Translations under genes and position numbers: made by a program
Assembly (NCBI RefSeq): GCF_054482595.1
Contig: NZ_CM137008.1
Direction: 5' to 3' (one strand)
Length of the DNA: 64,000 nucleotides
Shown here: positions 45,229 through 60,070 of the stretch, one piece after another
Layout of the letters: every line of letters begins with the position of its first letter
Position numbering within the stretch: the first letter of the stretch is position 1
The notes under the pieces: model-generated
Databases searched by the model: none
Seen by the model: only the letters and a program-made list of their open reading frames with translations
What the model was told of the DNA's origin: nothing

Positions 45229-46244
45229 AAGTTGATGCAGTAATCTTATGGGTAGATGGTAATGATCCAAAATGGCAGGAAGAATACAATAAATATTGTA
45301 AGCCGGCCTCTCGAATTGAGAATGGTGTACAAAGATATAGAGATTGGGATACACTACGATATGTAATTCGTGGAATAGAATATAACCTTCCTTGGATTGA
45401 CAAAATACATTTTGTGACATGTGGTCAAAAGCCAAGTTGGATGGTTGGATATCATCCAAAACTCAATTTTGTACATCATAACGATATTTTTGAGAATGAT
45501 ACATTTTTACCCACATTTAATTCAAGTGCAATAGAGTTAAATCTGTCAAGGATAAAGGGATTAAGTGAGAGGTTTATATATTTTAATGATGATATGCTTG
45601 TGCTTAAAAACACTCCTCTTCAGAGGTTTTTTGTAAATGATTTACCGGTGGATTTTTTAATTGAAGCTTTCCCACGGCGTGGGTTATTGTATGAAAAAAT
45701 ACGTTCCAACTCAACTTGGGTTTCAATGATAAATAATTGCACTTCGCTCATAAATAGAGTGTATCACAAGAATAAATATATACAGGATAATCGTAATTTA
45801 TATTATAACATGAACTATGGACGACATGTCATTGCTAATGTACTGGCGTCCCCTTTTAAGCAGTTTTTGGCTTTTAAACACTATCATCATCCTCAAGCAT
45901 ATCTTAAAAAGACATTACAATCCGTTGAGCGTGAGTTCCCAGTGGAGTTTAACTTAACATGCAAATCTAGATTCCGAGAACATGATAATATCTCACAGGC
46001 GTTGTTTAGATATTACCAATTGGTAACTGGTAGTTTTTATCCGTGCTATTATAATGATCATGCCTGTGTTAATGTAGTAAATAAAAAATCTGCAAGCCAG
46101 TGTATTGAAGCTCTTCATCAAAAACGATTTGTGTGTATAAATGATGAGATTAATGACGACTTAGATGATAGTTCAATTTTAATAAATGATATAATTAAAG
46201 AGTTGGATTTGATTCTTCCAAATAAATCAAGTTTTGAGATCTAA
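45225..46244 (+). CDS. Stealth-family hexose-1-phosphate transferase (glycosyl-phosphotransferase)
   Basis: 339-aa ORF; Stealth CR1-like DAVILWVDGNDPKW, CR2-like TLRYVIRGIEYNLPWIDKIHFVT, CR3-like YFNDDM. Confidence 0.75.
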   Translation: MKVDAVILWVDGNDPKWQEEYNKYCKPASRIENGVQRYRDWDTLRYVIRGIEYNLPWIDKIHFVTCGQKPSWMVGYHPKLNFVHHNDIFENDTFLPTFNSSAIELNLSRIKGLSERFIYFNDDMLVLKNTPLQRFFVNDLPVDFLIEAFPRRGLLYEKIRSNSTWVSMINNCTSLINRVYHKNKYIQDNRNLYYNMNYGRHVIANVLASPFKQFLAFKHYHHPQAYLKKTLQSVEREFPVEFNLTCKSRFREHDNISQALFRYYQLVTGSFYPCYYNDHACVNVVNKKSASQCIEALHQKRFVCINDEINDDLDDSSILINDIIKELDLILPNKSSFEI

Positions 46245-46250
46245 ATTAAT

Positions 46251-47069
46251 ATGAATTCGTTTGATGAGTTTAATGTGCTACTATCTCTTTATAAAAATGA
46301 GAGCCCCGATAATCTGGATGCGTGTTTTCAAAGCATAAGCACTCAATCTTTGAAAAGATTTAAAATAATACTTGTCATAGATGGTCCTATTTCTTCTGAG
46401 TTAAATGAGGTTGTCGGAAAGTGGAAGTCACTATTACCTATTAAAATTATCAATCTCGAACGTAATGTTGGCTTAGGTAATGCTTTAAATATAGGTTTGA
46501 AATATTGCAGTTGTGATTATGTGTTTCGTATGGATACAGATGATATTTGTCATCCGGATAGGTTTTCCATACAATTTAGTTATCTGAGGAAACACCCCGA
46601 TATTGATTTGCTTGGTGGACAGATTGTAGAATTCCATGAATGCATAGAGGAGCCTAACGGTATGCGGTTAGTACCTTCTAAATATGAGGAAATTCTTCAG
46701 TATTGTAAACTTAAAAACCCATTTAATCATATGACAGTTGTGTTTAAAAGAGAGAGTGTACTTAAGGTCGGTGGATATAAACATCATTTATATATGGAGG
46801 ATTATAATCTTTGGCTTCGTATGATATCAATTGGTTGCAAAGTGGAAAATTTAGATGATGTGATTGTTTTTGCCCGAACAGACGTGAATTCATTAATGAG
46901 ACGTAGAGGGTGGCAATATGTTAAAAGTGAATGGAAATTAGCACTGTTAAAAATAAAGTTAAGAATAAATAATCCTATTGTTTCTTTATCTGTTTTTATC
47001 CTCCGATCTATACCTCGATTATTACCTATTATGTTGATTCGTAGAATTTATGCCCACAACCGCAAGTGA
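46251..47069 (+). CDS. Glycosyltransferase family 2
   Basis: 272-aa ORF; FNVLLSLYKNE ... VIDGP ... MDTDD motifs. Confidence 0.8.
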   Translation: MNSFDEFNVLLSLYKNESPDNLDACFQSISTQSLKRFKIILVIDGPISSELNEVVGKWKSLLPIKIINLERNVGLGNALNIGLKYCSCDYVFRMDTDDICHPDRFSIQFSYLRKHPDIDLLGGQIVEFHECIEEPNGMRLVPSKYEEILQYCKLKNPFNHMTVVFKRESVLKVGGYKHHLYMEDYNLWLRMISIGCKVENLDDVIVFARTDVNSLMRRRGWQYVKSEWKLALLKIKLRINNPIVSLSVFILRSIPRLLPIMLIRRIYAHNRK

Positions 47070-47217: not shown

Positions 47218-48624
47218 ATGTCAAAGCAACAGATTGGCGTCGTCGGTATGGCAGTGATGGGGCGCAACCTTGCGCTCAACATCGAAAGCCGTGGTTATAC
47301 CGTCTCTATTTTCAACCGTTCCCGTGAAAAGACGGAAGAAGTGATTGCCGAAAATCCAGGCAAAAAACTGGTTCCTTACTATACGGTGAAAGAGTTTGTT
47401 GAATCTCTGGAAACGCCTCGTCGCATCCTGTTAATGGTGAAAGCAGGTGCAGGCACGGATGCTGCTATTGATTCCCTCAAGCCATACCTCGATAAAGGTG
47501 ACATCATCATTGATGGTGGTAATACTTTCTTCCAGGACACCATTCGTCGTAACCGTGAACTTTCTGCCGAAGGCTTTAACTTCATTGGTACCGGTGTTTC
47601 CGGTGGTGAAGAAGGCGCGCTGAAAGGGCCTTCCATTATGCCTGGTGGCCAGAAAGAAGCCTATGAACTGGTTGCACCGATCCTCACCAAAATCGCCGCA
47701 GTGGCTGAAGACGGTGAGCCATGCGTTACCTATATTGGTGCCGATGGAGCAGGTCACTATGTGAAGATGGTTCACAACGGTATTGAATACGGCGATATGC
47801 AGCTGATTGCTGAAGCCTATTCTCTGCTTAAAGGTGGCCTGAATCTTTCCAACGAAGAACTGGCGCAGACGTTTACCGAGTGGAATAACGGTGAACTGAG
47901 CAGCTACCTGATCGACATCACCAAAGATATCTTCACCAAAAAAGATGAAGACGGTAACTACCTGGTTGATGTGATTCTGGATGAAGCAGCAAACAAAGGT
48001 ACGGGCAAATGGACCAGCCAGAGTGCGCTGGATCTCGGCGAACCGTTGTCGCTGATTACCGAGTCTGTGTTTGCTCGTTATATCTCTTCTCTGAAAGATC
48101 AGCGTGTTGCCGCATCTAAAGTTCTCTCTGGCCCGCAAGCACAGCCAGCAGGCGACAAGGCTGAGTTCATCGAAAAAGTTCGTCGTGCGCTGTATCTGGG
48201 CAAAATCGTTTCTTACGCCCAGGGCTTCTCTCAGCTGCGTGCTGCGTCTGAAGAGTACAACTGGGATCTGAACTACGGCGAAATCGCGAAGATTTTCCGT
48301 GCTGGTTGCATCATCCGTGCGCAGTTCCTGCAGAAAATCACCGATGCATACGCCGAAAATCCGCAGATCGCTAACCTGCTGCTGGCTCCGTACTTCAAGC
48401 AAATTGCCGATGACTACCAGCAGGCGCTGCGCGATGTCGTCGCTTATGCGGTACAGAACGGTATCCCGGTTCCGACCTTCGCCGCTGCGGTTGCCTATTA
48501 TGACAGCTACCGCGCCGCAGTTCTGCCTGCGAACCTGATCCAGGCACAGCGTGACTATTTCGGTGCGCATACTTATAAGCGCATTGATAAAGAAGGTGTG
48601 TTCCATACCGAATGGTTGGATTAA
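47218..48624 (+). CDS. gnd: 6-phosphogluconate dehydrogenase (decarboxylating)
   Basis: 468-aa [22 protein letters not shown]-binding motif. Confidence 0.95.
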
Positions 48625-48821: not shown

Positions 48822-49280
48822 ATGGGGAACGAAAAGAGCTTAGCGCACACCCGATGGAACTGTAAATATCACATAGTTTTTGCGCCAAAATACTGAAGAC
48901 AAGTGTTCTACAGAGAGAAACGTAGAGCAATAGGCAGTATTTTGAGAAAGCTGTGTGAGTGGAAAAGCGTACGGATTCTTGAAACTGAATGCTGTGCAGA
49001 TCATATCCATATGCTTGTGGAGAGCCCGCCCAAAATGAGCGTATCCGGCTTTATGGGATATCTGAAAGGGAAAAGCAGTCTGATGCTTTACGAGCAGTTT
49101 GATGATTTGAAATTCAAATACAGGAACAGGGAGTTCTGGTGCAGAGGGTACTACGTCGATACGGTGGGTAAGAACACGGCGAAGATACAGGATTACATAA
49201 AGCACCAGCTTGAAGAGGATAAAATGGGAGAGCAGTTATCGATTCCCTATCCGGGCAGCCCGTTTACGGGCCGTAAGTAA
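48822..49280 (+). pseudogene. tnpA: IS200 tnpA (Y1 HuH transposase) interrupted by an in-frame TGA at codon 25
   Basis: MGNEKSLAHTRWNCKYHIVFAPKY, TGA at 48894-48896, then the same frame continues through HIHMLVE (HuH motif) to the stop at 49280. Confidence 0.75.
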
Positions 49281-49573: not shown

Positions 49574-50749
<1,176 letters not shown>

Positions 50750-55730: not shown

Positions 55731-58101
<2,371 letters not shown>

Positions 58102-58106
58102 GGCGA

Positions 58107-59006
58107 TCACTCCATCATCTTCTCAATCGGCAGGACCAGGATTGAACTGGCACCCAGCGCTTTCAGTTTTTCCATGGTTTCCCAGAACAGGGTTTCGCTA
58201 CTGACCATGTGCATCGCTACGCGCTGTTGATCACCCGCCAGCGGTAGAATAGTTGGGCGTTCGGCACCTGGCAGCAGGGCGATGACTTCATCCAGACGTT
58301 CGGTCGGTGCGTGCATCATGATGTATTTTGATTCGCGCGCCTGGATCACACCCTGAATACGGGTCAGCAGTTTGTCGATCAGTTGCTGTTTGGATTCTTC
58401 CATTTCGCCATCGCGCTGGATCAGGCAGGCTTTCGAGCGGTAGATAACTTCGACTTCGCGCAGGCCGTTAGCTTCCAGCGTGGCACCGGTGGAAACCAGA
58501 TCGCAAATCGCATCCGCCAGTCCGGCACGCGGGGCGACTTCAACAGAACCGTTCAGTAAGCAGGATTTAAAAGAGATGCCTTTCTGGTCGAGATAACGCT
58601 TGAGCAGGTGAGGATAAGAGGTGGCGATACGTTTACCGTTTAAGGAGAGCGGGCCGTCCCAGGCTTCATCAACTGGCGTTGCCAGCGAAAGACGGCAGCC
58701 GCCGAAATCCAGACGACGCAGGGTAAAGTAGCGTGGATCTTCACCCTGGGCGCGGCGGTTAAGCAGCTCTTCTTCCAGCACGTTTTCGCCGATAATCCCA
58801 AGGTCTACCACGCCATCCATTACCAGACCGGGAATGTCGTCGTCACGCACGCGCAGAATATCAATCGGCATGTTTTCTGCCATCGCGATCAGGCGCTGGG
58901 TGTGAAGATTGATTTTAATGCCACAGCGCGCCAGCAATTCGCGTGAGTCATCACTTAAACGGCCGGATTTCTGCATAGCTATGCGTAAACGAGTGTTGTC
59001 TGTCAT
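58107..59006 (-). CDS. hisG: ATP phosphoribosyltransferase
   Basis: 299 aa from [18 protein letters not shown]. Confidence 0.95.
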
Positions 59007-59061
59007 TTTCTTATTCCTCTTTAAACCTGTCTGAACCGTTATCAACCGCGCAATAAAAAAG

Positions 59062-59094
59062 CCCCCGGAAGGTGATCTTCCGGGGGCTTTCTCA
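59062..59094 (-). terminator. his attenuator terminator hairpin
   Basis: Minus strand reads agcccccggaag-atcac-cttccgggggct followed by UUUUUAUU, between hisL and hisG. Confidence 0.85.
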
Positions 59095-59151
59095 TGCGTT
59101 CATGCACCACTGGAAGATCTGAATGTCTTCCAGCACACATCGCCTGAAAGA

Positions 59152-59202
59152 CTAGTCAGGATGATGGTGATGATGGTGGTGTTTAAATTGAACGCGTGTC
59201 AT
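59152..59202 (-). CDS. hisL: his operon leader peptide
   Basis: Minus strand encodes MTRVQFKHHHHHHHPD-stop, with seven consecutive His codons. Confidence 0.9.
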   Translation of the reverse strand: MTRVQFKHHHHHHHPD

Positions 59203-59452
59203 AAAAGTCTCTGTGAATGTTTATTCAACTGATGTCTTTTAACCTAAACCACTTTCACGTTAGAAAGCAAGGGCTTTTTTATATATTTTATGGCGATGGA
59301 TTTGTTTAATGAATGAGCGGGGAAAGGAGGGCGCTAAGAGGACTGTCCTCTAACCTGACGGTACCCAAAATAGCGAAGCCTGGATTTTTCGTCTCACTGA
59401 CAATGTCTTGATCTACAAACTAATTAATAAATAGTGAATCAACGTCTATCAT

Positions 59453-59470
59453 TGTACAATAAGCTGTACA
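59453..59470. promoter_or_regulatory. yefM-yoeB operator (paired TGTACA motifs)
   Basis: tgtacaataagctgtaca, 15 nt upstream of the yefM ATG. Confidence 0.65.
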
Positions 59471-59485
59471 AAAGAGGAGATTGAC

Positions 59486-59737
59486 ATGCGTACAATTAGT
59501 TACAGCGAAGCGCGTCAGAATTTGTCGGCAACAATGATGAAAGCCGTTGAAGATCATGCCCCGATCCTTATTACTCGTCAGAATGGAGAGGCTTGTGTTC
59601 TGATGTCACTCGAAGAATACAACTCGCTGGAAGAGACGGCTTATCTACTGCGTTCCCCCGCTAACGCCCGGAGATTGATGGACTCAATCGATAGCCTGAA
59701 AGCAGGCAAAGGAACGGAAAAGGACATTATTGAGTGA
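59486..59737 (+). CDS. yefM: Antitoxin YefM (Phd family)
   Basis: 83-aa [18 protein letters not shown]; 4-bp overlap with yoeB. Confidence 0.95.
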
Positions 59738-59988
59738 AACTAATCTGGTCTGAGGAGTCATGGGATGATTATCTGTACTGGCAGGAAACAGATAAGCGAA
59801 TTGTTAAAAAGATCAATGAACTTATCAAAGATACCCGCAGAACACCATTTGAAGGTAAGGGGAAGCCAGAACCCCTGAAGCATAATTTGTCAGGCTTCTG
59901 GTCCCGACGCATTACAGAGGAGCACCGTCTGGTATACGCGGTTACTGACGATTCACTGCTCATTGCAGCATGTCGTTATCATTATTGA
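59734..59988 (+). CDS. yoeB: Toxin YoeB (RelE-family ribosome-dependent mRNA interferase)
   Basis: 84-aa ORF matching YoeB. Confidence 0.95.
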
Positions 59989-60070
59989 ACAGATTCATTC
60001 ATAGAATGAATTGTCAGTTTTGATACGCTAGCGTAGCCTTATAGATCTAAGGTGTATCAGGAGATAACGG

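Follow-up and report, generated by a model that had tools for sequence, protein, structure and literature searches.

Sequence evidence for an intact yefM-yoeB toxin-antitoxin operon at its canonical chromosomal locus in Escherichia coli

The window analysed in this study is the whole 64-kb stretch of DNA. Near its right-hand end, at positions 59453-59988, a pair of short genes follows an operator-like sequence on the plus strand. An earlier note on this DNA had described the segment as a yefM-yoeB toxin-antitoxin pair next to the his operon. The ORF list and the sequence display a two-gene operon on one strand, antitoxin gene first, with overlapping stop and start codons. The gene order is that of a K-12-type genome and of strain E2863: hisG and hisL, then, in the divergent direction, yefM, yoeB, yeeZ, yeeY, yoeI, and plaP. 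The genes and the RNA feature around the module are as follows.

56797-58110, minus strand: hisD (ORF list and annotation)
58107-59045, minus strand: hisG, longest ORF (ORF list and annotation)
59053-59176, minus strand: histidine operon leader RNA, 131.6 bits (Rfam)
59152-59202, minus strand: hisL (annotation transfer)
59486-59737, plus strand: yefM, ATG start, 83 aa, predicted antitoxin of the Phd/YefM family and autorepressor (ORF list, profiles, and alignments)
59734-59988, plus strand: yoeB, GTG start, 84 aa, predicted ribosome-dependent mRNA endonuclease toxin with a RelE-type fold (ORF list, profiles, and alignments)
60071-60895, plus strand: yeeZ (ORF list and annotation)
60941-61870, plus strand: yeeY (ORF list and annotation)

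The limits assigned to the module in the earlier note are exact: the first operator hexamer begins at 59453, and the yoeB stop codon ends at 59988. The pair does lie beside the his operon, with the hisL start codon 283 bp from the module. The earlier description of the module as abutting an O-antigen/his variable region is right for the his operon and holds only loosely for the O-antigen genes. These extend from wzx to the last glycosyltransferase (40961-47069), at a distance of about 12.4 kb, and are separated from the module by gnd, an IS200-family remnant, ugd, wzzB, and eight his genes (hisIE through hisG). The O-antigen cluster at 40961-47069 is of the O160 type and comprises wzx, wzy, three glycosyltransferases, and a Stealth-domain protein. 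With a 25-kb query that includes this cluster (39001-64000), nearly full-length matches were confined to about nine of the complete E. coli genomes, at about 98.4% identity. The insertion sequence remnant is an IS200/IS605-family tnpA (48822-49280, plus strand) between gnd (47218-48624) and ugd (49583-50749). It has an in-frame stop at codon 25 (48894-48896), and the annotation of the closest O160-type genome includes this pseudogene as well.

When 58800-60300 was searched at permissive E-values, the histidine leader was the only genuine Rfam match, and no RNA family was found within the module. The remaining matches in that interval overlap the terminator hairpin of the His leader, score far under the gathering scores, and were rejected. 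Early in-vitro studies of K-12 had noted a cryptic transcript running divergently from the his promoter, which was probably that of the yefM-yoeB operon (PMC1802561).

The yefM stop codon TGA (59735-59737) lies inside the start region of yoeB, whose GTG start codon occupies 59734-59736. The shared bases GTGA, read directly from the sequence, give the 4-bp overlap that had been reported. An AAGGA stretch is located 9 nt ahead of the GTG.

YoeB of the window is 100% identical to chain E of PDB entry 2A6Q over the 83 residues compared (2-84; E = 7e-56), and the same sequence occurs in eight PDB entries, including the ribosome complexes 4V8X and 6OXA. Pfam PF06769 scored 146.3 bits (cut-off 27) and the NCBIfam equivalog TIGR02116 (Txe/YoeB) scored 132.8 bits (cut-off 51.8). 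Glu46, Arg59, Glu63, Arg65, His83, and Tyr84 are catalytic or contact the substrate in YoeB (PMC3814384). A check of the catalytic residues had been proposed in the earlier note; by direct numbering of the translation and because the protein is identical to 2A6Q chain E, all six are there. Against a K-12-type O16:H48 genome, yoeB carries six substitutions, all synonymous, and no indel.

YefM is 82/83 identical to chain A of 2A6Q, with S73A as the sole difference. It was matched by Pfam PF02604 over residues 1-74 (97.1 bits; cut-off 29.8) and by the NCBIfam equivalog NF008499 over residues 1-83 (185.6 bits; cut-off 121), and its Phd-type N-terminal domain was matched by TIGR01552. Compared with the same O16:H48 genome, yefM has four substitutions, three of them synonymous and the fourth S73A, and no indel; the two genes together have ten, of which nine are synonymous. 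The alignment thus excludes the frameshift or truncation that the earlier note had named as grounds for withdrawal. It agrees with the description of an intact Phd-type antitoxin and toxin, both ORFs being full length.

S73A results from T to G at 59702, codon 73 being GCA (59702-59704). Residue 73 belongs to the C-terminal part of YefM, which we take to be the YoeB-binding segment of the 2A6Q structure. With a 68-base probe, A73 was found in 0 of 4,186 complete RefSeq genomes with a matching yefM stretch, all matches being at most 98.5% identical. The closest complete genome, that of the bovine strain E2863, differs from the window by one base in 868, at 59702. In its RefSeq annotation, the coordinates of yefM and yoeB agree exactly with those found here (the coordinate in the locus of that genome plus 53399 equals the window coordinate). 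A sequencing error at this base is ruled out, because the exact A73 protein occurs on 102 contigs of public draft assemblies at the same locus. The four such loci that were fetched have the same neighbours, and one of them, in GCA_036290925.1, is identical to the window across 6,252 bases. Hence, A73 is a genuine but rare lineage allele.

Judged from these sequence comparisons, 59453-59988 is almost certainly the chromosomal type II toxin-antitoxin operon yefM-yoeB of E. coli, intact and at its canonical locus; no result speaks against this identification. The earlier note had called it a known module, and rightly so in view of the identity of the toxin and the near identity of the antitoxin to the crystallised K-12 pair; it is an already known module with essentially the reference sequence. 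What is unusual here is only ordinary allelic variation (one operator base and one conservative residue) and the presence or absence of the whole cassette among genomes.

The distribution of the module was evaluated in 5,426 complete E. coli genomes. A 601-bp query covering the module has a match of at least 95% identity in 4,216 of them. The module is nearly always single-copy and always chromosomal, never on a plasmid in this collection, and among the matches listed it is annotated as yefM/yoeB. About 22% of the genomes (~1,210/5,426) are without it. A 2-kb query from hisG to yeeZ matches 5,423 genomes but covers at least 80% of its length in only 4,215; among the matches listed, the alignment of the genomes below 80% is split into two parts, neither of which includes the module. 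Alignment to two module-negative genomes, in which nothing is annotated between hisL and yeeZ, defined the segment that is present or absent and a hairpin at its right-hand boundary.

59341-59993, plus strand: present-or-absent cassette, 653 bp (alignment to two module-negative genomes)
59994-60010, plus strand: hairpin TTCATTC-ATA-GAATGAA just past the yoeB stop codon, followed by TTGTCAGTTTTG (folding)

The cassette comprises 112 bp upstream of the operator, the promoter/operator, yefM, yoeB, and 5 bp past the stop codon. The two module-negative genomes have 210-211 bp of unrelated sequence in its place (loci L003 and L004, at about 841-1051), between flanks that align with those of the window. 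Within this stretch are GCCGGATGCGGCGTGAATGCCTTATC.GGTCTACA and an inverted counterpart, presumably a REP-type extragenic palindrome pair. A divergent Escherichia (NZ_CM149565.1, ~85% identical; locus L005, 3489-3668) has hisL and the yeeZ homologue separated by only 178 bp, with neither the toxin-antitoxin cassette nor the REP-like segment; yeeY is not annotated there. In this genome the equivalent of about 59281 is joined directly to that of about 59996. This short spacer suggests that it is the ancestral state and that both fillings seen in E. coli were acquired as insertions. A repeat search of 59330-60075 revealed no terminal direct or inverted repeats of the kind that mark a transposon-like insertion flanking the cassette or its replacement; there were only short two-copy matches at chance level.

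The hairpin has a perfect 7-bp, AT-rich stem and directly adjoins the right-hand end of the cassette. A 71-nt fold at this site gave -17.9 kcal/mol (z = -3.1). It appears to be conserved backbone, since it is kept in genomes with and without the module; related sequence is present in the spacer of the divergent Escherichia. It may act as a weak 3' end structure or mark a recombination boundary. No terminator was found after yoeB by a consensus terminator scan.

The population data show that the module, which is missing from about a fifth of complete genomes, is dispensable and behaves as a discrete cassette. This raises a reading in which the module has no host function, being a selfish addiction cassette that was inserted between hisL and yeeZ, persists as it is hard to lose, and at most stabilises the neighbouring, often exchanged gnd/O-antigen/his region. 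The sharp exchange of 59341-59993 for the REP-like sequence in two genomes, the many genomes lacking the module, and the short spacer of the divergent Escherichia all speak for it. However, the coding sequence is consistent with purifying selection, nine of the ten substitutions being synonymous and the toxin protein invariant, and the module is found in single copy at one chromosomal locus, with no plasmid-borne copy in the collection. Furthermore, Lon- and heat-dependent activity of YoeB has been demonstrated in vivo in K-12 (PMC4554461). On balance we regard such a cassette without host function as unlikely. The question bears on the biological role of the module only, not on the identity of its genes. 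No published phylogroup distribution specific to yefM-yoeB was obtained in a literature search.

The identification of the locus as yefM-yoeB extends to its control region. The yefM-yoeB operator of K-12 has been defined experimentally. It consists of a long (L) repeat, 5'-TCATTGTACAATGA-3', and a short (S) repeat, with TGTACA cores 12 bp apart centre-to-centre; the -10 box lies within the footprint, and the yefM ATG is at +21 (PMC1802561). The promoter, pyy, has a -35 hexamer TaGttA, a 17-bp linker, a -10 hexamer TAcAAT, and a G at +1, with the L repeat over the -10 box and the S palindrome around the start site (PMC7730913). The promoter of the window was positioned relative to the yefM ATG, taken as +21 (PMC1802561), with the elements of PMC7730913, which gave the following features.

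59432-59437, plus strand: -35 hexamer of pyy, TAGTGA (TAGTTA in K-12; G for T at 59436), placed from the yefM ATG, with the difference from K-12 taken from the alignment
59449-59462, plus strand: L operator repeat, predicted primary YefM site, TCATTGTACAATAA (sequence compared with PMC1802561)
59455-59460, plus strand: -10 hexamer TACAAT, within the L repeat as in K-12 (PMC7730913 and sequence)
59465-59470, plus strand: S operator repeat core TGTACA, spanning +1 (G59466), 12 bp centre-to-centre from the L core (unique match, PMC1802561, and PMC7730913)
59474-59479, plus strand: Shine-Dalgarno sequence GAGGAG, 6 nt ahead of the yefM ATG (sequence); the ribosome binding site in K-12 is 6 bp from the ATG (PMC1802561)

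The TGTACA-N6-TGTACA operator ahead of the genes, also pointed out in the earlier note, is TGTACAATAAGCTGTACA (59453-59470). It is the sole match to this pattern on either strand of the 64-kb window. About 0.004 matches are expected by hand arithmetic for a 12-base palindromic pattern, and none occurred in 100 dinucleotide-preserving shuffles of the window. As an operator we counted two TGTACA cores 12 bp apart centre-to-centre, lying over a -10 box and start site and no more than 80 bp from an ATG. The two cores here have that spacing and placement, and they end 27 bp (59453-59458) and 15 bp (59465-59470) ahead of the yefM ATG.

The control region is not identical to that of K-12. The L repeat, TCATTGTACAATAA, differs from the perfect K-12 palindrome, TCATTGTACAATGA, by one mismatch, G to A at 59461, which breaks one outer pair of the palindrome and leaves the core at 59453-59458 intact. 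The operator spacer is ATAAGC instead of the ATGAAC of K-12. The exact 76-base allele spanning the promoter, the operator, and the 5' part of yefM is found in 200 of the 5,426 complete genomes. Spacer and flanking sequences differ widely between natural yefM-yoeB operators (PMC1802561). Because both cores and their spacing are intact and natural spacers and flanks are variable, normal repression would be expected from this operator.

Upstream of the L repeat, C to T at 59447 relative to K-12 changes CATCAT to TATCAT and creates a second promoter-like sequence, TTAATA-N17-TATCAT (59424-59452), whose predicted start would fall within the L repeat. This site came from a consensus scan that missed the mapped promoter, and it was set aside; it is probably a chance consensus match, as the region yielded two promoter-like sites against 2.0 expected from shuffles.

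These differences could be read as a shift in the regulatory set-point. The imperfect L palindrome, the TAGTGA -35 hexamer, and S73A would together loosen autorepression or alter antitoxin stability, so that the basal or stress level of YoeB would differ from that of K-12. The extra palindromic bases around the core may underlie the preference of YefM for the L repeat (PMC1802561), and one of them is lost here; the additional promoter-like site and the rarity of A73 among complete genomes point the same way. Against this, both cores, the 12-bp spacing, the -10 box, and +1 are all unchanged, and wide variation in spacers and flanks is natural in operators of this family (PMC1802561). The operator allele is an ordinary population variant, since 200 complete genomes share it, Ser to Ala is a conservative change, and the count of promoter-like sites is that of shuffled sequence. 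A shifted YoeB level thus seems quite improbable. That the allele as a whole (L mismatch, -35 hexamer, second promoter-like site, and S73A) differs measurably from K-12 in autorepression set-point or antitoxin stability is, in our judgement, very improbable; if it did, it would be a natural regulatory variant of yefM-yoeB.

The full-length ORFs, the identity of YoeB, and the single conservative change in YefM refute, to near certainty, a reading of the locus as decayed or inactive, for example through mutation of the toxin active site or truncation of the antitoxin, and neither the ORF list nor the alignments of both genes and proteins gave evidence of decay.

For an intact yefM-yoeB operon, the mechanism established in K-12 can be carried over by sequence identity. 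A weak sigma-70 promoter (TAGTGA, 17 bp, TACAAT, +1 at G59466) would give rise to a single yefM-yoeB message, and the 4-bp overlap would couple translation of the two genes. A YefM dimer would bind the L repeat, over the -10 box, first and then the S repeat, over the start site. YoeB would serve as a corepressor that tightens YefM binding, resulting in autorepression of the operon. This follows K-12, in which YefM dimers repress via the L and then the S repeat and YoeB enhances repression (PMC1802561). The C-terminal part of YefM would keep YoeB inactive until Lon degrades the antitoxin, for example at high temperature, and sets YoeB free. In K-12, Lon-dependent loss of YefM at elevated temperature activates YoeB in vivo (PMC4554461). 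Free YoeB would enter the ribosomal A site and cleave mRNA after the second codon position, with Glu46 as the general base, His83 as the general acid, and Arg65 and Tyr84 stabilising the transition state. Cleavage at that position in the A site and acid-base catalysis by Glu46 and His83 have been described for YoeB (PMC3814384). Toxicity and its neutralisation, autorepression, and Lon dependence are thus predicted for the pair of the window because its proteins are identical, or nearly so, to those studied in K-12. The physiological role of chromosomal yefM-yoeB is debated, since heat-activated YoeB did not cause growth arrest (PMC4554461) and about a fifth of strains are without the module.

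Few type II systems are as well characterised as yefM-yoeB, for which there are crystal structures and ribosome complexes, a promoter and operator that have been mapped, and an identified activating protease. The copy in the window has little significance beyond correct annotation, and the useful outcome is a negative one: the region needs no more attention. The cassette data are mildly useful for work on the turnover of chromosomal toxin-antitoxin modules. The 653-bp cassette and its 210-bp alternative could be a useful example in which to follow gain or loss of such a module via exchange of flanking DNA near the recombination-prone O-antigen/his region.

Among known systems, the closest is YefM-YoeB of K-12 (yefM b2017 and yoeB b4539; PDB 2A6Q, 2A6R, 2A6S, and 4V8X). 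The window shares with it the locus, gene order, gene lengths, 4-bp overlap, GTG start, YoeB protein, TGTACA cores, 12-bp spacing, -10 hexamer TACAAT, +1, and Shine-Dalgarno spacing. It differs in S73A, the L mismatch (G to A at 59461), the -35 hexamer TAGTGA, nine synonymous coding changes, and several substitutions upstream of the operator. Axe-Txe of the Enterococcus faecium plasmid pRUM is a homologous pair whose operator likewise has L and S repeats with TGTACA cores at a 12-bp spacing (PMC7730913). Distinct from the module of the window, Axe-Txe is plasmid-borne and has a much stronger promoter (-35 TTGCTT), an operator positioned differently relative to the -10 box, and an extra upstream promoter (PMC7730913). 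The module of the window is the chromosomal E. coli orthologue, not Axe-Txe. The pairs of Staphylococcus aureus (6L8E) and Mycobacterium tuberculosis (RelJ-RelK, 3OEI) belong to the same two families by sequence and are distant relatives, with E-values of 1e-26 to 8e-25 for the toxin and 1.8e-15 to 3e-13 for the antitoxin.

The earlier note had termed the toxin RelE-type. This is correct at the level of the fold, which YoeB shares with RelE (PMC6821326), but not in the sense of a RelE orthologue. YoeB of the window matches models of the RelE/ParE superfamily weakly (PF05016 and TIGR02385), with TIGR02385 (RelE_StbE) at 23 bits, below its cut-off of 27.9. The antitoxin is of the Phd/YefM type, whereas RelB is a ribbon-helix-helix antitoxin. 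YoeB is therefore not a RelE orthologue, and the pair is not RelBE in the strict sense. With Phd-Doc of phage P1, the likeness is confined to the antitoxin: TIGR01552 matches a Phd-type domain at the N-terminus of YefM, and the toxin Doc, a kinase, is not related to YoeB.
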